UHGV virus genome: UHGV-1378817
Direction: 5' to 3' (one strand)
Origin: a virus
Length of the DNA stretch: 64,000 nt
Shown here: piece by piece, positions 8,100 to 16,510 of the stretch
How the letters are laid out: every line of letters begins with the position of its first letter
Position numbering within the stretch: the first letter of the stretch is position 1
The notes under the pieces: generated by a model
Told to the model about the DNA's origin: nothing
The model's database searches: none
Seen by the model: the letters and a program-made list of their open reading frames with translations, nothing else
Position numbers and translations under genes: made by a program

Positions 8100-9647
8100 T
8101 TAGATAAAACGCTTGAACATAGAAGGTGATGAGATTGATGGAATCACACAAGGAAGTGCTACCTCCTCTTTCTCCAGGAAATTAATCGCAGAAGCTACAC
8201 AGTCGGCCCAGTCGTCTTTTCTATTAAATGTTGATCTTTCCCCGTTGAATTTTTCAAGTTCAGTCAGAAATGCTTCCAGAGTATCAGGATGGAAACTGGA
8301 TTTTACAATCCTCACCATTCCTTGTTGGGCAAGATTGGCAAAAGGTGAGAACCTTGTCAGTTTAGATTTGTTGGAAGGCATTGGGTCTTCTTCAACCCTA
8401 AACCCTTCGGCGAGCAAGGATCTAGAGGAGGTTAAGAACTCACTCTTACCTGCCTGACCTGGGTCCACAGAGAAGACGATTATGCAATCATCACCATCAA
8501 ACTGCGCCTGTTTCCTGATGATCACATCTCGTTCACCAGCCTTTTTACAGAACTTGCCTTCCAGACCTGTGGAATACCTCCCGTCATCCACGTTCTCAGG
8601 ACAATAATCACCGGACAGGTAATAAAAGCCGTCGCTATCTTTACTTACCTTAACACTGGCGGTAAAGTCAGGAAACTTATTACCAGAAGTTCTCTCGGTT
8701 CCTGCCTTATCCCATGCCCTACAAGATACTGATCCAAGGGGCACTCTGTCGGCATCACGAAGGAAAGATCTTTGAAAATAGTTTGCACCCTCAGGCTTTG
8801 CAAACCAGTTACCATGGAGAAGCTGAGCTTTTTCAAGCTCGGGCAGACCTTCAAGGAAAGCAAGGTATTCTGGGTTGTCTCTTAAGCAGACAGGATTATC
8901 GAATATTGTTGCGCCTATAAACGAGAATGACAACGGTCTTGGCTTGATCTCCACACCCAGTCCGTTAACCGTGGTGTATTTCTCTATCAACTCTTCTTTA
9001 GAGTCTCCCCAGATAAATTCACCGTCGCGTCGGATAAAATATCTTTTCTTACCACATTTCTCCGGATCTGGATACCCTTCATCGTCCAACCACCATCTAA
9101 CCAGTTTGGCAAGCATGTGTTCTGAATCGGGGTTACAGCTGATAACCATTCTTGATGGATACTTTGACTGAGATCGCAGACGAGACATCAGATAGTCTAT
9201 CTGCTCCCATTCGAACTGCGTGCCCTCATCGAAGCAAACCATGGTATACTCAAGCCCTTGATGGTTAAGCTTATCTTGTACATACTCCATGTGGCAGTAT
9301 TTTACAACAGCTCCCTTTTTGCTTCTATCCCACTTGCCAGTGTTCGGATCAAACCGTGGAAAAATGAACTTATGATCCTTCTCTCTGAACTTTGGCTTAA
9401 TGTTTTCAGGCAGATCACTATAAATAGCTACTGCTTTAGGCCATAGTCCACCCTCACCTTCCAACTGTGGGGTTGTTCTTCGGAACATAACCACAGAGCT
9501 GTGGGGGTCATCAATAATTTTAAGTGGCATCAATTGCAAGAGGAACGACTTGCCAGACCCTGCGGCACCGCCGATTACCAAAATATCTGCATCGTTTTCG
9601 AGGATCATCTTCTGCTTTTCAGAACACGGTCCGTAAATCTTAGACAT
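8100..9647 (-). CDS. terL: terminase large subunit
   Basis: 515 aa; N-terminal Walker A VIGGAAGSGKS, central acidic motifs, C-terminal nuclease-like half; first gene of morphogenesis block. Confidence 0.8.
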   Translation of the reverse strand: MSKIYGPCSEKQKMILENDADILVIGGAAGSGKSFLLQLMPLKIIDDPHSSVVMFRRTTPQLEGEGGLWPKAVAIYSDLPENIKPKFREKDHKFIFPRFDPNTGKWDRSKKGAVVKYCHMEYVQDKLNHQGLEYTMVCFDEGTQFEWEQIDYLMSRLRSQSKYPSRMVISCNPDSEHMLAKLVRWWLDDEGYPDPEKCGKKRYFIRRDGEFIWGDSKEELIEKYTTVNGLGVEIKPRPLSFSFIGATIFDNPVCLRDNPEYLAFLEGLPELEKAQLLHGNWFAKPEGANYFQRSFLRDADRVPLGSVSCRAWDKAGTERTSGNKFPDFTASVKVSKDSDGFYYLSGDYCPENVDDGRYSTGLEGKFCKKAGERDVIIRKQAQFDGDDCIIVFSVDPGQAGKSEFLTSSRSLLAEGFRVEEDPMPSNKSKLTRFSPFANLAQQGMVRIVKSSFHPDTLEAFLTELEKFNGERSTFNRKDDWADCVASAINFLEKEEVALPCVIPSISSPSMFKRFI

Positions 9648-9934
9648 TAACCTCTCTCCTTTGGAAACAGTGTTCTAATATAGTCTTGCAAAATGATCAA
9701 TTTAGCTCTATCATTGCTACAAGACAGATTATTATCCCTCATAATGCCAGAATTCACTGCATCTGGAGCACCTTTCTTCAAAGGCATAGCTTTAGCAGGT
9801 GGTTTCATGGCACCTTCCGGGGGTTTAACAATCAACCTTCCTACATCCGGAGGGTCAATCTTGTATTCTCTCTCAACGCTGGTTGCACACCCACATAATA
9901 ACAAGCACACAATAAACAGTGTAGCAACTCTCAT
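9647..9934 (-). CDS. putative o-spanin (Rz1-like outer-membrane lipoprotein)
   Basis: 95 aa; signal peptide with Cys-containing lipobox-like LLLCGCATS, Pro-rich mature part; overlaps preceding gene by 4 nt. Confidence 0.5.
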   Translation of the reverse strand: MRVATLFIVCLLLCGCATSVEREYKIDPPDVGRLIVKPPEGAMKPPAKAMPLKKGAPDAVNSGIMRDNNLSCSNDRAKLIILQDYIRTLFPKERG

Positions 9935-10329
9935 CGATCCTCCTGATTGATACTCTCATTATAAATATCTATAAGCTGATCAGGGAGTGTTGACTTCTTG
10001 CCTTCAGGTGATTGGAGGTAGATAATCTGCTTTTCTTTACCTGCCCTCTCAGCCATATTTAATTTATCCTGCAGATCAGAAAGAGATTTTTCAAGGTTTT
10101 TAACCTCCTCTGCGTGGCCCATTTTAATTTTGTCGGCCTGCTTTTGTTGCTGATCAAGGATCCGTTCCCACTTTAACTCTGTTGCTGACACACCCTCTTG
10201 GTAGGCATCATTAAGCTTGGAGTTAAACCAATACACGGCCCCAAGATAAGCTGTACCTATCGCAGCTGCAAAAACTAAACCTTTTATGATCCCTCTATAC
10301 CTACTCAGCCATGTTAAAACTGAAATCAT
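9931..10329 (-). CDS. putative i-spanin (Rz-like)
   Basis: 132 aa; N-terminal TM helix (GLVFAAAIGTAYLGAVYWF) then charged coiled-coil; immediately upstream of o-spanin candidate. Confidence 0.5.
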   Translation of the reverse strand: MISVLTWLSRYRGIIKGLVFAAAIGTAYLGAVYWFNSKLNDAYQEGVSATELKWERILDQQQKQADKIKMGHAEEVKNLEKSLSDLQDKLNMAERAGKEKQIIYLQSPEGKKSTLPDQLIDIYNESINQEDR

Positions 10330-10434
10330 TTTAAGGCTCCAGAAACGAAAAAACCCCGCAGCTATACAGCTAACGGGGCGGGTTAAAATTGAGTAACCTA
10401 AATAGATCGAAACTAACTAAAAGGAGACTAATAC

Positions 10435-10704
10435 TTATCGAGGCACTCGGTGGATGATTCTAACAGTAACTGCATTTTCATTCATCAAGTATGCATCTAC
10501 ATCTCTGTAAATATAAAACTTCTGCTCACTATCAACAACACAAGCTACCGCCCCTTCAGAGTTGTCTTCAAAAAAGACCACCACTGCATCGCAGCTGAGT
10601 TCATGATATGACTCTCGAAGATTTACAGCCAGAGGATTGAAATCGTCACGAAAATCTACGGTATGGGTTGGATTTACACGCTCTACAATTTTAAGTGTAT
10701 ACAT
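10435..10704 (-). CDS. hypothetical protein
   Basis: ORF track 10435-10794 runs into tRNA-Pro; trimmed to ATG at 10704 (MYTLKIV...) with AAGGA SD. Confidence 0.4.
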   Translation of the reverse strand: MYTLKIVERVNPTHTVDFRDDFNPLAVNLRESYHELSCDAVVVFFEDNSEGAVACVVDSEQKFYIYRDVDAYLMNENAVTVRIIHRVPR

Positions 10705-10750
10705 TTTAAAGGTTCCTTTTGTTTGTATATGTTTAAAGTATAACTGAAAG

Positions 10751-10827
10751 TGGTCTCCACGGAGTGATTCGAACACTCGACCTCCTGATCCCAAATCAGG
10801 CGCTCTACCAAGCTGAGCTACGCGGAG
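10751..10827 (-). tRNA. tRNA-Pro (anticodon UGG)
   Basis: Cloverleaf read by hand: 7-bp acceptor, D arm GCTC/GAGC, anticodon arm CCTGA-TTTGGGA-TCAGG, T loop TTCGAAT, encoded CCA. Confidence 0.8.
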
Positions 10828-10838
10828 TATTTATTATT

Positions 10839-10913
10839 TGGTGGCCCTGGGTGGAATTGAACCACCGTCTGGCGATTATGAGTCGCTTGCTTGAACCTTC
10901 CAGCTACAGGGCC
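10839..10913 (-). tRNA. tRNA-Met or Ile2 (anticodon CAU)
   Basis: Acceptor GGCCCTG/CAGGGCC, anticodon arm GCGA-CTCATAA-TCGC, T loop TTCAATT, encoded CCA. Confidence 0.7.
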
Positions 10914-10914
10914 A

Positions 10915-10990
10915 TGGTGCTGATAGCAGGACTCGAACCTGCAACCTATTGATTACAAATCAATTGCACTACCAATTGTGCTACATCAGC
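10915..10990 (-). tRNA. tRNA-Thr (anticodon UGU)
   Basis: Acceptor GCTGATG, D arm GCAC/GTGC, anticodon arm ATTGA-TTTGTAA-TCAAT, T loop TTCGAGT, CCA. Confidence 0.75.
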
Positions 10991-10995
10991 AAAAA

Positions 10996-11094
10996 GGTGC
11001 TAGGTGATGGAATCGAACCACCTATGTATTCAACGACTACCTCGTCTATTTTCAGGATTAAAAATCCTCGCCCTTGCCAAAGGGCTTACCTAGC
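10996..11094 (-). tRNA. atypical long tRNA-like element (~99 nt; anticodon loop reads UUU with 4-bp stem; long extra arm)
   Basis: Acceptor GCTAGGT/ACCTAGC and canonical T arm GGTGG-TTCGATT-CCATC are clear; anticodon arm and a 30-nt variable region are non-canonical; 3' end ACC not CCA. Confidence 0.35.
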
Positions 11095-11192
11095 TCAGTA
11101 TGTTGACCATGTTGCTAGTCGGCGATGACGACTGTAACATTTGATAATCCGGTTCTGCTTCCGGCTTTCGCTTAATTACAAGGTCAACAATA

Positions 11193-11283
11193 TGGCTGAG
11201 GGTAATGGAATCGAACCATCATCGAGTCATCCTCAACGGGACGGTTTTCAAGACCGCTTGAGCACCATTGCTCCCTACCCTCA
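11193..11283 (-). tRNA. tRNA-Ser (anticodon UGA), type II
   Basis: Acceptor TGAGGGT/ACCCTCA, 3-bp D stem, anticodon arm GCGGT-CTTGAAA-ACCGT, long variable arm, T loop TTCGATT, CCA. Confidence 0.75.
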
Positions 11284-11397
11284 TTTATAAACAATACTGA
11301 TAATGACACTGATTTTCGAGCAGTTAGTGACTAGTATAAACGACGATAAATATCAATGCCATTATCTGTATGATTTATGCATTTAAAACTATAAATT

Positions 11398-11484
11398 TGG
11401 TGGGGAGTGGTGGAGTCGAACCACCCGAGTCGCAATGACAATAGATTTACAGTCTACACCGCTACCTCTACGGGATAACTCCCC
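11398..11484 (-). tRNA. tRNA-Tyr (anticodon GUA), type II
   Basis: Acceptor GGGGAGT/ACTCCCC, anticodon arm GTAGA-CTGTAAA-TCTAT, variable arm, T loop TTCGACT, CCA. Confidence 0.75.
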
Positions 11485-11488
11485 AATT

Positions 11489-11563
11489 TGGCACCCCGTA
11501 CTGGACTCGAACCAGTGTCAACGGCTTAGAAGGCCGCTGCTTTATCCACTAAGCTAACAGGGC
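11489..11563 (-). tRNA. tRNA-Arg (anticodon UCU)
   Basis: Acceptor GCCCTGT/ACGGGGT (two G-U pairs), D arm GCTT/AAGC, anticodon arm GCGGC-CTTCTAA-GCCGT, T arm ACTGG-TTCGAGT-CCAGT, CCA. Confidence 0.7.
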
Positions 11564-11659
11564 ACTGGGTGGCTTTCTTTTACACCTTAGCCGCCAGAAA
11601 AGGTGGGAGACCATGTTTACAATATTACACTGTTAAGCAAAGTTTGTCAAGAAAATATT

Positions 11660-11998
11660 TTAGCTATTGCCAACAGGTTGTATTTCTGTGGTAAATGGCA
11701 TAAAAGGTGCTGGTTTTTCAGCCTCTTCTACTACCACCTCTTCCTCTTCACCAAACATCTCATCATATTCTTCCTGCATTCGGTCTGCCTTATCAAGAAC
11801 ATACTCTGCAATGCTTTGACGAATATTTTGTTTGGTTTTCGGGTCCAACATCAGCTCTCTTAAAACTTTGTGAGCTTCTGGAACCATCGCTATAAAAGAT
11901 TCCTTCATATCAAGGATGTTCTTCTCTAGCTGAATGGCGTTGGACTCCTCTTTCAGAGGTCTGCCTCTACGGCGACGCTTTTTAGTTGTATCCGCCAT
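11660..11998 (-). CDS. small basic/acidic DNA-binding-like protein (AT-hook-like KKRRRRGRP motif)
   Basis: ORF track 11660-12151 trimmed to ATG at 11998 (MADTTKKRRRRGRPLKEES...) with GGAGG SD; acidic C-terminal tail. Confidence 0.45.
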   Translation of the reverse strand: MADTTKKRRRRGRPLKEESNAIQLEKNILDMKESFIAMVPEAHKVLRELMLDPKTKQNIRQSIAEYVLDKADRMQEEYDEMFGEEEEVVVEEAEKPAPFMPFTTEIQPVGNS

Positions 11999-12009
11999 GT
12001 TTCCTCCAT

Positions 12010-12021
12010 TATCACGTGATA
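12010..12021. promoter_or_regulatory. 12-bp perfect palindrome TATCACGTGATA just upstream of AT-hook-like gene
   Basis: Perfect dyad 12 nt upstream of the SD of the 11660-11998 gene. Confidence 0.35.
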
Positions 12022-12039
12022 GGTGGATTTTATCATAGC

Positions 12040-12260
12040 AAATACTGATTGTCAAGTTCGCCGCAGGGTGGTATTCCCTGCGACTTGCCCAGCGTCCTGG
12101 ACCAGCAAGACCCAACAAGTGGGTTTTCCAGCTATACCCATTACCGCACACAGGCTCGACCTTATTACAGGTTGGCTGGGGTCACATCGTCATGTGCTGG
12201 CTGCCCCTACCATTTTAAGTGTGGTGCACTATCAAGCCCTCTAAGGGGAACTCAGCCTTC
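12040..12260. other. GC-rich ORF-poor structured segment (candidate ncRNA)
   Basis: Local GC visibly well above flanks; several perfect hairpins (CGCAGGG-tggtatt-CCCTGCG; ACCCA-acaag-TGGGT; CACA-tcgtca-TGTG); only short multi-frame ORFs without SD. Confidence 0.3.
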
Positions 12261-12346
12261 TCCGAACCCTGTTTCAAAGCATCCGGAGATAAAGCCATCA
12301 AATTCATCTTTAAATTGGATATTCATCATAATACACGAAAACAACC

Positions 12347-12589
12347 TCATTGTAAAGCACAAATAAATAAAACATACTTAATTTGTTTGTTATCAGGCTC
12401 AGGGTAGAAGTAGAAGATCTTGCTATCACCGATCTGAACACCACCATCCCAACAGCATAGCCCATAACCCGTATTCATACAAGCTAAGTCGTTGGCAAAA
12501 TCTATTGCATCATCCAGTGCACGAAATTCACCTTCATCTTCTAAATAATCCTCATTCATGGAACGAAAAACGAGCTTAACCTTAAACAT
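12347..12589 (-). CDS. hypothetical protein
   Basis: 80 aa ORF, co-oriented with neighbours. Confidence 0.4.
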   Translation of the reverse strand: MFKVKLVFRSMNEDYLEDEGEFRALDDAIDFANDLACMNTGYGLCCWDGGVQIGDSKIFYFYPEPDNKQIKYVLFICALQ

Positions 12590-12665
12590 AGCATTACCTG
12601 TAGACCTCGTAAGTTAAAATTGTATCACATCATATTGCAGATCTTATCAGGTAACATTATTTTTG

Positions 12666-12875
12666 TCAACAGATTCCGGCCTTATCTCGCCTGTCTGCGT
12701 ATTCTTTAATCGCAACCTCCTCGGCATGGGTGACTAAATCTTCAAAGTAACTCTCAAGCTCCTCGTCAATGTCAGGAAACCAACTCTTTTTCCTGTCAGT
12801 GTGAATCGCAGACTTGTTGAATTTATTACAGTTCTTTGCTACCGGATTGTTCATTAATCGCCCCTCAGCGTTCAT
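12666..12875 (-). CDS. hypothetical protein
   Basis: 69 aa ORF; overlaps upstream gene by 11 nt. Confidence 0.35.
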   Translation of the reverse strand: MNAEGRLMNNPVAKNCNKFNKSAIHTDRKKSWFPDIDEELESYFEDLVTHAEEVAIKEYADRRDKAGIC

Positions 12876-13443
12876 AGTAAATCTTATTTAACATTACCTC
12901 ATCCTTTGCAGAGAGAATACCGAGATATGCATCACCGAACCTACCTGCAACAACCTCTACATGATACATAACTTCGTTAATATCGTCAAGAGTGATAACT
13001 GGATGACCGTATCTCTCTGAGTATTGTCTCAGAGTGCGATGTAGGGAATCATCATCGTAGGCAGACTTTTTAATATCACAAACACGACGAATAGCCTTGA
13101 TGTCGAAAAACCCTGTGCGATACCAACCAAGAAAAAGGTTTCGTACAGTGTCAACACCTACATCAACACCGTCAAGAACCTTATCTACAAGATAGCTGTC
13201 ATCCTTTGGACCTGCTTCCTTAGTTCGAATGTAGTTGCCATCTTTTCCAGGTGACAGCTCCTTCTCATCACCAACCTGAATGCCATCATTTGGCGGTGTT
13301 AACCACTTATCCGGATGCTTACGATCACGAGCGTTAGAATGATTACGCTGGAAACCTGGCTTCCACTTGAAAGTTTTCTCCATCTGTTCTTCATTCTGAT
13401 AACGTTTTGCAATCTTTTCACGGTCATCTTTGCGTGGACTCAT
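12865..13443 (-). CDS. hypothetical protein
   Basis: 192 aa ORF with complex composition; first gene downstream of GC-rich segment. Confidence 0.45.
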   Translation of the reverse strand: MSPRKDDREKIAKRYQNEEQMEKTFKWKPGFQRNHSNARDRKHPDKWLTPPNDGIQVGDEKELSPGKDGNYIRTKEAGPKDDSYLVDKVLDGVDVGVDTVRNLFLGWYRTGFFDIKAIRRVCDIKKSAYDDDSLHRTLRQYSERYGHPVITLDDINEVMYHVEVVAGRFGDAYLGILSAKDEVMLNKIYYER

Positions 13444-13559
13444 AACTACCTCCTCTTCAAGTTATAGAAAAACTCACTGTATCGCTTTGTAACGAGCTTT
13501 TCTATCAAACTGGTGCGATTGCCTTACCTGGTATAGTTTATATAGCTGTGGAGCGATTT

Positions 13560-13810
13560 AGGTGCCTTCTTGTCCGTTTCCACACATAAACTTCATCCAA
13601 GCTCGCGCGGGAGACTCTCAACCGACTCCTTACGGCGCTGGCAAGCTTTCGTCGGTGGTCCACATCAGTGCTCGGCCTTTGGCCTGCGCTATCGCTTCGC
13701 TCCCACACATGTTAACAGACCTGCATGTATGCACTTCTGTTATTGTGTGCACCAGGGAGGCCCGGCATCTCGCCCCTCGTAGGCGAGTGCCAATGAAGGG
13801 CCGACACTAC
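13560..13810. other. GC-rich ORF-poor structured segment (candidate ncRNA)
   Basis: About 250 bp of high GC in an AT-rich genome; hairpins such as GGCC-ttt-GGCC and CGCC-cctcgtag-GCG; the two ORFs called here overlap in different frames and lack SD. Confidence 0.3.
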
Positions 13811-13947
13811 CCATAGTAAGTAATAAATTTAAAACATGGTACTTAGGATCTAGTATATTCTACATAAGTTAAGTATATGTACTTAGTACCATAAGTACTA
13901 GATCTTTTATTTTTTATTATTTAGTTATTTTAGTTATATTCTTTATG

Positions 13948-14028
13948 TGTCCGTATCACGGACAGTTAGTGTCCGTATTACGGGCAGATGTGTCCGCGTG
14001 ACGGACAGTAGTGTCCGTATCACGGACA
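13948..14028. promoter_or_regulatory. array of four 17-bp palindromic operator-like sites (TGTCCGT-N3-ACGGACA)
   Basis: Sites at 13948-13964, 13970-13986, 13991-14007, 14012-14028; 21-22 bp centre-to-centre; sites 1 and 4 identical. Confidence 0.5.
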
Positions 14029-14103
14029 GTTACTAACCTCTGTTCCATAGCGAACATAAAACATACGAATCCTTATAGTACAGATATTTAAGTTTTTACT
14101 GGT

Positions 14104-14454
14104 CTAACCAGTTGTTGACATTCGAATAACCTCTTCTGGTGGCAAAACTTTGGAAAATGTGCATCTTTTACCTCTCCCTTGTGTGGATATTTCAACCACT
14201 CCTGCACATTCTAAAGTTTTAACGCACGCTGCTGCTTTTGTTTTCTTTATCCCAACATCTGCTGCAATTTTCCTTGTGCTGGGTGTGAAGCGTGAACTTC
14301 CTCCAAGCTTATACCAGTTGTGCAGGTAGCAGTATACGATCTTGTCATACAAGTCAAGAACAACAACCTCCCCAGTTGTGTCATTCAAAACTTTTGACAT
14401 AGACAGTATTTCAAGGGGGACTTTAAGATATAGCAGCTTATCCCCATCTTTCAT
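14104..14454 (-). CDS. hypothetical protein (possible DNA-binding protein)
   Basis: 116 aa basic ORF immediately upstream (on minus strand) of the palindrome array. Confidence 0.4.
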   Translation of the reverse strand: MKDGDKLLYLKVPLEILSMSKVLNDTTGEVVVLDLYDKIVYCYLHNWYKLGGSSRFTPSTRKIAADVGIKKTKAAACVKTLECAGVVEISTQGRGKRCTFSKVLPPEEVIRMSTTG

Positions 14455-14501
14455 ATCTCCTGATTCTCCTTGTGTGGCAATTTTCTTTAAAATAGCAGGG
14501 A

Positions 14502-15056
14502 TTACTCCCCGCTGTCAATAGCAAGACTCATTGCAATACTGTATGCCTCTTCTAATGGTAAGAGTCTACCCCACACATCCCAACCGACATCAAACTGCCT
14601 GCCAAACAACTGTTGTGTGGTTCCGTGAGCATGACCGAACAGTTGTACTGATCCGTGAGGCTTTCTGTTCCACTTTGCAAACTGGTAATGGCTCATACAG
14701 ATCAAATTCTTGTTGTGGCGAAGCTCGTAATAATCTACAACCTCATGATAGAACTCTTTCATAATTCTGACAGTCGTCCTTGTGTCATGGTTGCCACGAA
14801 CAAGAATAATATGTCCGTTCAACATATTTAGAATATCTGGAAGTAAGTTGTTGATATTTTTATCAGTAGTGCACGCAATATCTCCCAAGTGGAACACAGT
14901 GTCTGCAGGTGACACAACAGAGTTCCACTCGGCGATGATTCCCGCATTCATACTGTCAAGATTGTGATCATACTGAGATCTGTGTTTTTGACATGAATCA
15001 AACTCCATGACCCGCTGGTGGAGAAAGTGTGTGTCGCTTGTTACAAAGTATTTCAT
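14502..15056 (-). CDS. calcineurin-like metallophosphoesterase (candidate 2',3'-phosphatase/phosphoesterase)
   Basis: ORF track trimmed to ATG 15056 (MKYFVTSDTHF...) with GAGGA SD; motifs SDTHF (D-x-H), LGDIA (GD), GNHD, GHAHG. Confidence 0.7.
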   Translation of the reverse strand: MKYFVTSDTHFLHQRVMEFDSCQKHRSQYDHNLDSMNAGIIAEWNSVVSPADTVFHLGDIACTTDKNINNLLPDILNMLNGHIILVRGNHDTRTTVRIMKEFYHEVVDYYELRHNKNLICMSHYQFAKWNRKPHGSVQLFGHAHGTTQQLFGRQFDVGWDVWGRLLPLEEAYSIAMSLAIDSGE

Positions 15057-15063
15057 ACATTCC

Positions 15064-15474
15064 TCATTTAAGTTTAATGCAGTTTTTAAGCTGGCGTTCC
15101 ATACGATCCACAACCCTGTCTGGAACATCATGAATGCTTTTATTACCGTGTCGGTTTTCAACCACGATTACGGTATAATTATACCCATGGCTGATTGCCA
15201 TGTCAACATATTCTTGCACATGTTTTTCTTTTGTAAACGTATTACTTACCACGATACGGTCGTATCCCATACGCATCATATCTTCTACGTTATCTTTGCA
15301 CCATTTTGCTGCAAGTGTTACTTTACTTGCATCCCAGTTGTAATTGCCGTCATCGTCGTACCAGAACATGTCGTTCTCAAAATGTGGATACAGACCTTCT
15401 AAAGATAGCGCATTTGCCAGTGTTGATTTGCCAGACCCTGGTAGACCACGCACGATATATAGCATTTTAGACAT
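15064..15474 (-). CDS. polynucleotide kinase-like P-loop kinase
   Basis: Trimmed to ATG 15474 (MSKMLYIV...) with GGAGG SD; Walker A GLPGSGKST; layout resembles T4 Pnk kinase domain (IVVSNTF..., VPDRVVDRM). Confidence 0.6.
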   Translation of the reverse strand: MSKMLYIVRGLPGSGKSTLANALSLEGLYPHFENDMFWYDDDGNYNWDASKVTLAAKWCKDNVEDMMRMGYDRIVVSNTFTKEKHVQEYVDMAISHGYNYTVIVVENRHGNKSIHDVPDRVVDRMERQLKNCIKLK

Positions 15475-15592
15475 AGTAATCCTCCGTTTTAATTTCAAAG
15501 ATAGTATACCTAACTGTTTTGTTAATTTCAAGTGTTGACACTAGGTTATTTGTGTGGCAGGATAGACTGACAAAATGACAAATGAGGAACGT

Positions 15593-16510
15593 ATGATGAA
15601 GTATTTTAATGCAGACGACCTAGTTGACAAAGGTCTTGTAACCAGTAGATATTACCCAGATCTTGGGTTAAAGATCTATAAATACGCCAGAAAAGTATTT
15701 TACAACAATTTATGGCATTTGTCCCCTCGTTTACTGGAGTGCCGAGGCATTGTTGTCGGTAATGAAGGAAATGTTGTGGCATGGCCCTTCACAAAAGTGT
15801 TTAACTTGGGAGAAAACTCCACCAACCTGCCTGACAATAAGCTTGTGACGGCGGTAGAGAAAAAGAACGGATTCCTTGGTGTGGTATCATCTCATAAAGG
15901 TGAACTATTGTTCTCAACAACCGGATCTCTTGATTCTCCATATTGTAACCTTGCAAAGGAAACCATCCAGGAGCAATGCGGTAATTTAGATCTTATCAAG
16001 AAGGTTATGGGCAATGAAAACATGACATTCATGTTTGAAATTTGTCACCCTTCAGATCCGCATATTGTTCAGGAAGATCATGGCGCATATTTGATAGGTT
16101 GCAGGTATAATGATTCTGGAATAATGCTACCAGAGGCAGCTTTAGATGGGATTGCCAAATACCTTGGTGCAAAACGTCCTCACACTGTGCGTGAAATTCC
16201 GTTCAGCTATGCAAAAGAATTGGCTGCAGAAACAAGAGGTGAAGGGTATATGATTCGTAAGCCTTACTATCCTTATGATCTGCAGCTGAAGATCAAGTCT
16301 CCATACTATCTGGCACGGAAGGCCGTAATGAGGGGTAAAGCTTGGAAGATTTGGGATGATGATATCTTTAAACGTGTTGACGAAGAGTTTTACGGCATGG
16401 TAAACTTCATTCGCAACAACTACACAGAGGATGTATGGAACTGCCTCCTGGAGCAGGAACGCCGTGAGATACTTGACTACTATTTCCACAACGAGGACTA
16501 TATGCAATGA
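15593..16510 (+). CDS. RNA ligase-like nucleotidyltransferase
   Basis: Motif I K-x-N-G (EKKNGFLG), motif IV EGYMIRK, motif V LKIKSP; start moved to ATG 15593 with GAGGA SD; divergent from kinase/phosphatase pair. Confidence 0.55.
   Translation: MMKYFNADDLVDKGLVTSRYYPDLGLKIYKYARKVFYNNLWHLSPRLLECRGIVVGNEGNVVAWPFTKVFNLGENSTNLPDNKLVTAVEKKNGFLGVVSSHKGELLFSTTGSLDSPYCNLAKETIQEQCGNLDLIKKVMGNENMTFMFEICHPSDPHIVQEDHGAYLIGCRYNDSGIMLPEAALDGIAKYLGAKRPHTVREIPFSYAKELAAETRGEGYMIRKPYYPYDLQLKIKSPYYLARKAVMRGKAWKIWDDDIFKRVDEEFYGMVNFIRNNYTEDVWNCLLEQERREILDYYFHNEDYMQ

Follow-up and report, generated by a model that had tools for sequence, protein, structure and literature searches.

A conserved three-way-junction RNA on the gene strand of an rV5-like phage, and its apparently undescribed family among virulent phages

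The GC-rich segment at 12040-12260 of the phage DNA analysed here (the window, 64,000 nt in all) carries a conserved non-coding RNA fold. Comparison of its homologues shows a compact three-way junction of 58 nt at 12127-12184, specific to the minus strand, which is the strand that carries all genes around the segment, and shows that this core is common to T4-like, rV5-like and N4-like phages and to several uncultured lineages of virulent phages. The best reading of the segment as a whole is a non-coding RNA unit of ~190 nt on the minus strand, from ~12250 to 12062, the ends of which we infer from promoter-like consensus matches and hairpins; the element is apparently a member of an undescribed, widespread phage RNA family. 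We put at roughly one in two the probability that it works as a factor-binding small RNA or as a processed leader module, an estimate that takes in the uncertainty between action in trans and action in cis.

Genome setting of the segment

The window comes from an rV5-like Vequintavirus: the 2.5 kb around the segment share 99.1% identity with Escherichia phage APECc02 and 94-99% with ~118 further Vequintavirus (rV5-like) genomes. Read in the order of transcription, the minus strand presents a cluster of RNA ligase, polynucleotide kinase and phosphoesterase genes, a replication-initiator-like HTH gene, ORF77, ORF76 and ORF75, then the segment itself, ORF74 (11998-11660) and seven tRNA genes (11563-10751), with the array starting ~560 nt downstream of the element on the same strand. 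The tRNA genes were called by ARAGORN and the Rfam tRNA model, and neither finds a tRNA in 12040-12260, all seven of the window lying at 10751-11563. The annotation of rV5 itself marks the sigma-70 promoters P75, P74 and P(tRNA), and a consensus scan recovers these sites in the window at 12669-12641, 12055-27 and 11650-22.

Several features of this neighbourhood deserve mention in their own right. ORF74 (11660-11998, minus strand) encodes 112 aa with an N-terminal Arg-rich motif, KKRRRRGRP, and an acidic end, and its predicted protein is reminiscent of the lambda N-type RNA-binding antiterminators. Homologues of ORF74 are embedded within the tRNA arrays of PVP-SE1, 4MG and CR3, where they are never the sole protein gene, since small hypothetical, membrane-protein or HNH endonuclease CDSs occur there too. 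Between the -10 box of P74 and the ribosome-binding site of ORF74 lies a perfect 12-bp palindrome, TATCACGTGATA (12010-12021), which looks like an operator candidate. Within the tRNA array, an odd 99-nt tRNA-like gene (10996-11094, minus strand) has a 4-base anticodon according to ARAGORN and scores only 35.5 bits with the Rfam tRNA model; it is annotated as tRNA-Lys in AlexBoehm and unannotated in other records. Eighteen GenBank records named "Campylobacter phage" are ~97% identical to this E. coli rV5-like phage over the region, and their host or name labels look doubtful.

The first-pass annotation had described the segment as GC-rich, hairpin-dense and non-coding. The elevated GC is borne out, at 0.534 against 0.428 for the window, and the sliding-window calculation shows a real deviation, at the 99.4th percentile of all 221-nt windows. 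The hairpins that had been named are all present on the plus strand: CGCAGGG-tggtatt-CCCTGCG at 12062-12082, ACCCA-acaag-TGGGT at 12110-12124, and CACA-tcgtca-TGTG nested in GGGG..CCCC at 12178-12207. The term "hairpin-dense" holds to the extent that these hairpins exist, but their stability is no better than chance, with MFE z-scores against dinucleotide shuffles of -0.51 for the minus and -0.48 for the plus strand of 12030-12270; the T4 element likewise folds no better than its shuffles. Because the folding energy is ordinary on both strands, the case for an RNA rests on comparison, that is, on covariation. The open reading frames over the segment are short, overlapping and without conserved frames; the segment is non-coding in most annotated relatives, ORFs are annotated there inconsistently, and rV5 marks a promoter only. 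Clear protein-coding conservation did not emerge, and the indels and in-frame stop seen in relatives are incompatible with coding.

Fold, covariation and strand of the core

A covariance model of the element, R1, finds one copy in the 64-kb window (12127-12184, minus strand; 73.9 bits, E=2.7e-19). The layout on the minus strand is the same in every copy: a P0 stem-loop, the 5' strand of P1 directly preceding ACCU, the hairpin ACCU-GURNNA-AGGU (P2), CGA, a mini-hairpin of 2-3 bp (P3), GGUAA, and the 3' strand of P1, in which a purine is bulged after the first pair. The window copy fits this family definition, reading ACCUGUAAUAAGGU-CGAG-CCUGUGUGC-GGUAA, with GCCA/U(G)GGU as P1 (Table 1). GCGGUAAU resembles the 530 loop of 16S rRNA and the GGUAA strings of RNase P RNA, and a UAA/GAN junction motif was considered as well; these likenesses we take to be leads only.

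Covariation was first counted on 33 distinct sequences collected by hand and next on 64 distinct ones aligned by the model; the 64-sequence alignment is fitted to the model, and its P1 columns adjoin invariant blocks without gaps. In both sets the inner P1 pairs 10-49, 11-48 and 12-46 form in all comparable sequences; in the larger set they are unpaired in none of the 63-64 comparable distinct sequences, and they show 15, 12 and 27 double substitutions, respectively. Pair 10-49 is CG in 48 sequences, GC in 11 and AU in 4; pair 11-48 is CG in 51, UA in 7, GC in 3, and AU and GU in 1 each; and pair 12-46 is AU in 37, UA in 11, UG in 8, CG in 7 and GC in 1. Pairing is found in 94.5% of cells overall, as against 26-45% when the partners are slid by 1-3 columns, and the covariation score is 0.321 versus 0.086 in shuffles, with 0 of 500 shuffles scoring as high. 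P2 is invariant except in one copy, that of contig L100, where an A-U pair has become G-C by compensatory change.

The U.G and G.U pairs in P1 would read C.A or A.C on the opposite strand, and together with a wobble in the last hairpin of L035 they fit the minus strand only, so we assign the structure to that strand. Nor is the core coding, since P3 varies in length by 1-2 nt and single-base indels occur; AlexBoehm has a 1-nt insertion, and the NBG2-type copy has an in-frame stop. RNAalifold, applied to the core, recovers P2, places P3 in a shifted register (C27-G40/G28-C39 plus G30-Y37/C31-G36) and does not predict the bulged P1; the register of P3 is therefore ambiguous, and P1 rests on the pair counts.

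Architecture of the whole unit

Table 1. Predicted features of the RNA unit and its flanks, in 5' to 3' order of the minus strand
Feature	Position	Strand	Basis or remark
P75-type promoter site, stronger	12641-12669	-	consensus match only
Promoter-like site TTTACA-17-TATTAT, weaker	12328-12356	-	consensus match only
Upstream flank	12259-12311	-	hairpin and 21-nt block inside mini-ORF
21-nt block AAAGAUGAAUUUGAUGGCUUU	12291-12311	-	identical in both Vequintavirus lineages, flanking ORFs ~70% identical
Hairpin UCUCCG..CGGAGA	12259-12290	-	compensatory C-G to U-A in L035
5' module	12208-12250	-	41/45 identical, window-type versus L043-type
5' module, hairpin CCCCUUAGAGGG	12237-12248	-	followed by CUUGAUAGUGC
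5' module, hairpin ACCA..UGGU	12209-12225	-	third part of module
P0 stem-loop, outer GGGG/CCCC, inner CACAU-gacg-AUGUG	12178-12207	-	adjoins P1; hairpin kept, sequence lineage-specific
Three-way-junction core	12127-12184	-	R1 match; covariation of 64 distinct homologues; 45-nt blastn match
P1 5' strand GCCA	12173-12176	-	part of core
P2 hairpin ACCU-GUAAUA-AGGU	12159-12172	-	part of core
CGAG	12155-12158	-	shares one base with P3
P3 mini-hairpin GCCUGUGUGC	12146-12155	-	part of core
GGUAA	12141-12145	-	part of core
P1 3' strand U(G)GGU, purine bulged	12136-12140	-	part of core
3' hairpins	12062-12124	-	pairing; comparison with L060, L035 and L043-type
Hairpin ACCCA-cuugu-UGGGU	12110-12124	-	dispensable
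Hairpin CCAG-gacg-CUGG	12089-12100	-	
Hairpin CGCAGGG-aauacca-CCCUGCG	12062-12082	-	last hairpin
Promoter TTGACA-17-TAAAAT of next gene (rV5 P74), sigma-70-type	12027-12055	-	11/12 match; rV5 annotation

The core is embedded in flanking modules that differ in how far they are conserved. The P0 position is always occupied by a hairpin, in sequences as unrelated as GGAAC/GUUCC (L043-type) and GUACC/GGUAC (Vibrio F102), and compensatory pairs are seen between T4 (GGGAA/UUCCC) and L009 (GGGAG/CUCCC) and between S16 (AAAGG/CCUUU) and KpnM_GF (AAAGC/GCUUU). The L043-type sister lineage consists of metagenomic contigs that keep ORF76, ORF75 and ORF74 at 60-73% protein identity and that also keep the core, with a P0 of other sequence. 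The 5' module, CCCUUAGAGGGCUUGAUAGUGCACCACAC...AAAAUGGUAGG, is nearly unchanged there, with flanking ORFs that are 69-71% identical in DNA (measured over the L043 ORFs), and the element is thus better conserved than its flanking ORFs.

On the 3' side, the hairpin next to the core is called dispensable in Table 1 because 10 nt of it are deleted in L060. The RNA unit probably has its 3' end at the last hairpin: in L035 this hairpin still pairs through a U.G wobble that is valid on the minus strand only, and in the L043-type its place before the next promoter is taken by another hairpin, GCUGG..CCAGC. The P74-type promoter bounds the unit on this side, and no canonical intrinsic terminator was found 3' of the unit.

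On the 5' side, the window-type shows no convincing promoter immediately upstream of the unit, so P75 or the weaker site at 12356-12328 would have to drive its transcription. In the L043-type, TTGACA-16-TATACT (11/12) ends ~10 nt upstream of the 5' module, with 170 nt to the next promoter; L038, in which the element is divergent from both neighbours, has TAAACA-18-TATAAT upstream, and L106 has TTGCGG-17-TATAAT (read by eye). These promoter-like sites, which as consensus matches are not proof, point to a discrete RNA gene. The upstream flank possibly belongs to the same transcript. Its 21-nt block encodes KDEFDGF of a mini-ORF, which in the L043-type has only 8 codons and a strong Shine-Dalgarno sequence.

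Distribution across phages and hosts

A sensitive blastn search with 12000-12300 matched 119 rV5-like genomes and ~730 other phage records, the latter over 12135-12179 only (45 nt) at 86-95% identity and mainly from T4-likes of many genera, plus Vibrio phages. A second blastn, with a query taken from an N4-like copy, matched 982 phage records and showed that the N4-like Klebsiella phage KpCHEMY26 and the 45-kb phage Ivi carry the core, which was found in 849-982 records. Pattern scans of metagenomes and IMG/VR turned up further lineages that have it.

The 301-nt query had no match in 5,426 complete E. coli genomes. A host-derived sequence was rejected on this count, and the 18-mer matches found in bacterial genomes, which come without the rest of the motif, are chance. 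In the Vequintavirinae genera PVP-SE1, 4MG, BIS47 and CR3, the ORF74 homologue and the tRNA array are kept and the motif is absent, so the element is accessory and patchily distributed. ORF74, with its Arg-rich protein, was likewise set aside as an obligatory partner, since these related genera keep it in tRNA arrays without the motif.

Two T4-like contigs of 172-178 kb, L104 (9016-9185) and L100 (5087-5255), carry the motif in tandem copies ~115 nt apart. The second copy has CAG for CGAG, and in L100 it has the compensatory GCCU/AGGC in P2.

Neighbourhoods: tRNA arrays and vs.8

Outside the T4-likes, the motif tends to lie near tRNA genes: in 9 of 14 lineages, tRNA genes of the same strand are no more than 1.2 kb away. 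L040 and L108 have it within the tRNA array itself; in L067 it follows the array by 34 nt, and it precedes the array by 190-800 nt in the rV5-type, the L043-type, L084, L090, L102, L110, L065 and L109. In the N4-like and 46-kb phages it is found between long hairpins in a tRNA-operon leader of ~850 nt. This untranslated leader (L084 5100-5960, minus strand; also L090, L102, L110 and L124) consists of long hairpins, GGUAAGAGCAUU ... AGUGCUCUUACC, that recur with variable inserts, and is likely an array of processed small RNAs. The boxA-like repeats noticed in the N4-like leaders turned out to be the 3' strands of these long hairpins, and none lies near the window element.

The T4-likes are the exception to this linkage with tRNA genes because their motif is bound to vs.8. 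It always lies on the gene strand, in the spacer that immediately precedes the vs.8 homologue, an adjacency that holds over ~1000 phages (vs.8 homologues occur in 1010 records) and that persists even where vs.8 has diverged to ~37% identity. Such constancy beside a diverged gene means that a cis-acting leader fits the T4-like arrangement at least as well as a trans-acting RNA. P0 starts right behind the upstream stop codon, and a conserved hairpin, GCCANGGAAYGGC, ends ~10-15 nt before the vs.8 Shine-Dalgarno sequence. The product of vs.8 is a protein with only a weak P-loop signal in Pfam and PDB searches. As an obligatory partner of the RNA, vs.8 was rejected, there being no vs.8 homologue in the window or at the non-T4 loci.

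In T4 itself, the motif falls within the annotated first 37 codons of vs.8, and in phage T4T (L003, 2444-2555) the annotated start of vs.8 (216 aa) falls inside the P0 hairpin. The NBG2-type has an in-frame stop in this vs.8 extension, and all other annotations start at MRTFLTG (~179 aa), from which it follows that the annotated T4 vs.8 start codon is probably wrong.

The second GC-rich island and the origin-like region beside it

The segment had been paired in the first-pass annotation with a second island at 13560-13810, the two being seen as alike in character and as a possible pair of phage ncRNAs or remnants of a self-splicing intron or mobile RNA element. The likeness extends to GC composition (0.534 and 0.574; 0.57-0.60 over 13540-13850) and to nothing beyond it. 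Pairwise comparison found no repeat in common, neither shared sequence nor direct or inverted repeats, the covariance model has no match in 13560-13810, and the L043-type sister lineage keeps the first island without the second. The proposal thus survives in part: an ncRNA is well founded for 12040-12260, through covariation on the gene strand across several phage families, and the islands are not a pair.

Most annotations treat the second island (13540-13850) as non-coding, and rV5 shows it to be tolerant of indels; neither Rfam nor R1 matches it, and searches outside Vequintavirus and in the L043-type lineage found no homologue. A mobile element bounded by both islands was rejected, as no repeat links them and the L043-type keeps island 1 and ORF74-76 without island 2; relatives carry no annotated reverse transcriptase or homing endonuclease in the vicinity. 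In island 2, the string "CUGAUG..CGAAAG" suggests a hammerhead by eye, but it was rejected, as it lacks core A9, has a stem II of 2 bp and has no Rfam match.

Island 2 adjoins a region, 13810-14454, that resembles an origin of replication. Behind an AT-rich stretch (GC 0.32) stand four tandem iterons of 21-22 bp, every one of them the palindrome GTGTCCGTATCACGGACA (13947-14032), and the iterons adjoin an HTH gene (14104-14454, minus strand) that matches replication-initiator PHROGs.

Intron and retron hypotheses for the first island fared no better. Neither group I nor group II introns gave an Rfam match, even at E<=10 with lax filters: a group I intron was sought over 11900-14100 and 12040-12300, and the flanks there are separate, complete genes with promoters of their own; for a group II intron, no RT-like ORF exists in 9500-16500 or in annotated relatives. 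The string GAGCC resembles the 5' half of a domain V only superficially, the complementary 3' half being absent. Retron models were checked likewise (no Rfam retron family at E<=10, lax filters), and for an msr/msd there is neither an RT gene nearby nor a pair of inverted repeats bracketing the segment.

Proposed mechanism and rival readings

In the mechanism that we propose, the RNA would be made early, with or beside the phage tRNAs, and would be either a small RNA in its own right or a fragment processed from an operon leader. Its conserved module would present a sequence-specific surface to one conserved putative partner, which may be a protein of host or phage or, possibly, a tRNA. By binding this partner the RNA would serve as a decoy, a sponge or a factor for maturation or stability in the tRNA-centred part of the infection programme; it would neither base-pair to a target nor regulate the next ORF. 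That P2 and CGA/GGUAA are near-invariant across unrelated phage families, with their surroundings free to vary, suggests sequence-specific recognition by one partner. A single conserved partner is also suggested by the stand-alone promoters and tandem copies of the element, by its confinement to virulent phages and by the tRNA and RNA-repair genes near it.

Ranked second, and possible rather than probable, is a purely cis-acting leader or spacer of early and tRNA operon transcripts, which would serve processing, 5' stabilisation, translation control or processive antitermination and would act only on the RNA or polymerase that carries it. The motif is always co-oriented with the downstream genes or tRNAs and usually lies 5' of or inside a tRNA array; the T4-like arrangement, with P0 after the stop codon, GCCANGGAAYGGC before the vs.8 Shine-Dalgarno sequence and an adjacency kept over ~1000 phages, favours a leader, as does the N4-like and 46-kb setting, where long RNase-III-like hairpins flank the motif in the ~850-nt tRNA-operon leader. 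In rV5-likes, the next gene encodes an Arg-rich protein like lambda N, which in related genera lies inside tRNA arrays, but PVP-SE1, 4MG, BIS47 and CR3 have this protein and the tRNA array without the motif, and no boxA-like match occurs near the window element. Action confined to the transcript in cis also sits poorly with the strong promoter between the element and the next gene, seen in the window and in the L043-type, and with L038, where the element is on the opposite strand to both neighbours.

A bolder reading is that the element defines a new trans-acting RNA class exchanged horizontally among virulent phages of several families, which would neutralise or hijack one conserved host factor of tRNA or RNA metabolism; we regard it as rather unlikely. 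The RNA might, for instance, be a decoy for a defence nuclease that targets tRNAs or for a tRNA-modifying or tRNA-processing enzyme, and the anticodon-loop determinant of the Q-family tRNAs resembles the invariant U-G-U-R loop of the element.

We consider improbable a riboswitch-type aptamer, in which the junction would bind a small molecule or ion and switch alternative pairings. The compact junction, its invariant unpaired nucleotides, the variable peripheral stems and the tandem copies of L100 and L104 would suit such a device, as would the placement of the element in the 5' UTR of vs.8 in T4-likes, and both in the window and in T4-likes a downstream ACCCA/GCCCA offers the P1 3' strand UGGGU an alternative pairing. 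No covariation was seen for that alternative helix, however; aptamers seldom contain a sequence-invariant helix such as P2, riboswitches do not typically target tRNA genes, and in the window, the L043-type and L038 the element is a stand-alone unit with no regulated ORF behind it, a promoter or an opposite strand intervening.

A new self-cleaving ribozyme that cuts polycistronic or tRNA precursors is very improbable. A three-way junction with ~20 invariant nucleotides, phage-borne, set in multi-RNA precursors and sometimes tandem, does recall such ribozymes, but the element matches no model of the hammerhead, twister, twister-sister, pistol, hatchet or HDV type, it lacks the core CUGANGA/GAAA of the hammerhead, and no conserved cleavage-site context was identified.

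Very improbable too, finally, is a DNA-level element (a replication signal, say, or a target of recombination or homing) or a set of chance hairpins in a GC-rich spacer, for although the patchy phylogenetic distribution of a nearly identical 45-bp core, the origin-like iteron region 1.8 kb away and the unexceptional folding energy could be read in that way, compensatory changes keep the pairing, the G.U pairs are valid on one strand only, orientation is constant relative to transcription, and the window has no flanking repeats or endonuclease genes.

Significance

T4 would gain a strongly conserved structured RNA, where it is now annotated as the first codons of vs.8, and the element links T4 to rV5-like, N4-like and several uncultured virulent phages. 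Its position by phage tRNA and RNA-repair genes is in the part of the genome that is seen as a battlefield with tRNA-cleaving host defences, and, were the trans-acting counter-defence reading true, an RNA-based counter-defence would have been hidden even in phage T4. Because the core is only 58 nt long and T4 genetics is easy, the question of binding is directly testable. At a minimum, the gain is a set of corrected gene starts and a new model for phage genome annotation.

Comparison with known RNAs

Rfam 15 gives no match for the window, the T4 copy or nine other loci, whether at the gathering thresholds or with the filters relaxed and hits admitted up to E<=10; the best hits, mir-5912 at 11.9 bits (GA 88) and sR38 at 9.4 bits (GA 50), are noise. 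The literature yielded nothing on vs.8 leaders or rV5 ncRNAs. More than 10,000 candidate phage RNAs have been catalogued (PMC10690425), and the core sequence was not found in the searchable literature of 8 million papers, which does not cover the tables of that catalogue, so that a prior listing is possible. In T4, no riboswitch or trans-acting RNA has been characterised, according to a review of that phage (PMC3014915). In size, in its three helices and in its invariant unpaired junction bases, the element is like the purine and TPP riboswitches and the hammerhead, but its junction strands are 0 nt, CGA and GGUAA where the hammerhead has CUGANGA, GAA and H, there is no Rfam match, and its contexts are not riboswitch-like.

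GOLLD and ROOL are Rfam families of large ornate phage and prophage RNAs, often beside tRNA genes and with no established function; they are 500-800 nt long and occur mostly in Firmicutes and rumen phages. The element shares with them the character of a phage-borne structured RNA near tRNA genes and differs in scale, having a 58-nt core in a unit of ~130-200 nt, and neither family has an Rfam match here. The lambda nut and HK022 put sites are structured early-leader RNAs that act through a bound factor or the polymerase, nut consisting of boxA and a 15-nt boxB hairpin and put of two stem-loops. The rV5-like element recalls nut in that a gene for a small Arg-rich protein follows it, but neither nut nor put is a three-way junction, no boxA lies near the element, and relatives keep the Arg-rich protein without the motif.

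A further comparison is with the T4 RNAs rnaC and rnaD (the species 1 and 2 stable RNAs), whose function is unknown (PMC3014915, PMC9697503). Like the element, they are small ncRNAs of a virulent coliphage, on the tRNA strand and beside tRNA genes, but there is no relation in sequence or structure: R1 has no match in L080, which contains both, rnaC ends in a tRNA-like T arm that the element lacks, and T4 carries the motif elsewhere, 5' of vs.8. The rV5-like phage PhiTE, for its part, encodes pseudo-ToxI, which is made of 36-nt units in tandem and is a mimic of a type III antitoxin (PMC3475682). Whereas the element is a single non-repetitive junction for which no host counterpart was found, pseudo-ToxI resembles it in setting, as an ncRNA of the Vequintavirinae, and is itself a molecular decoy against host defence (PMC3475682).
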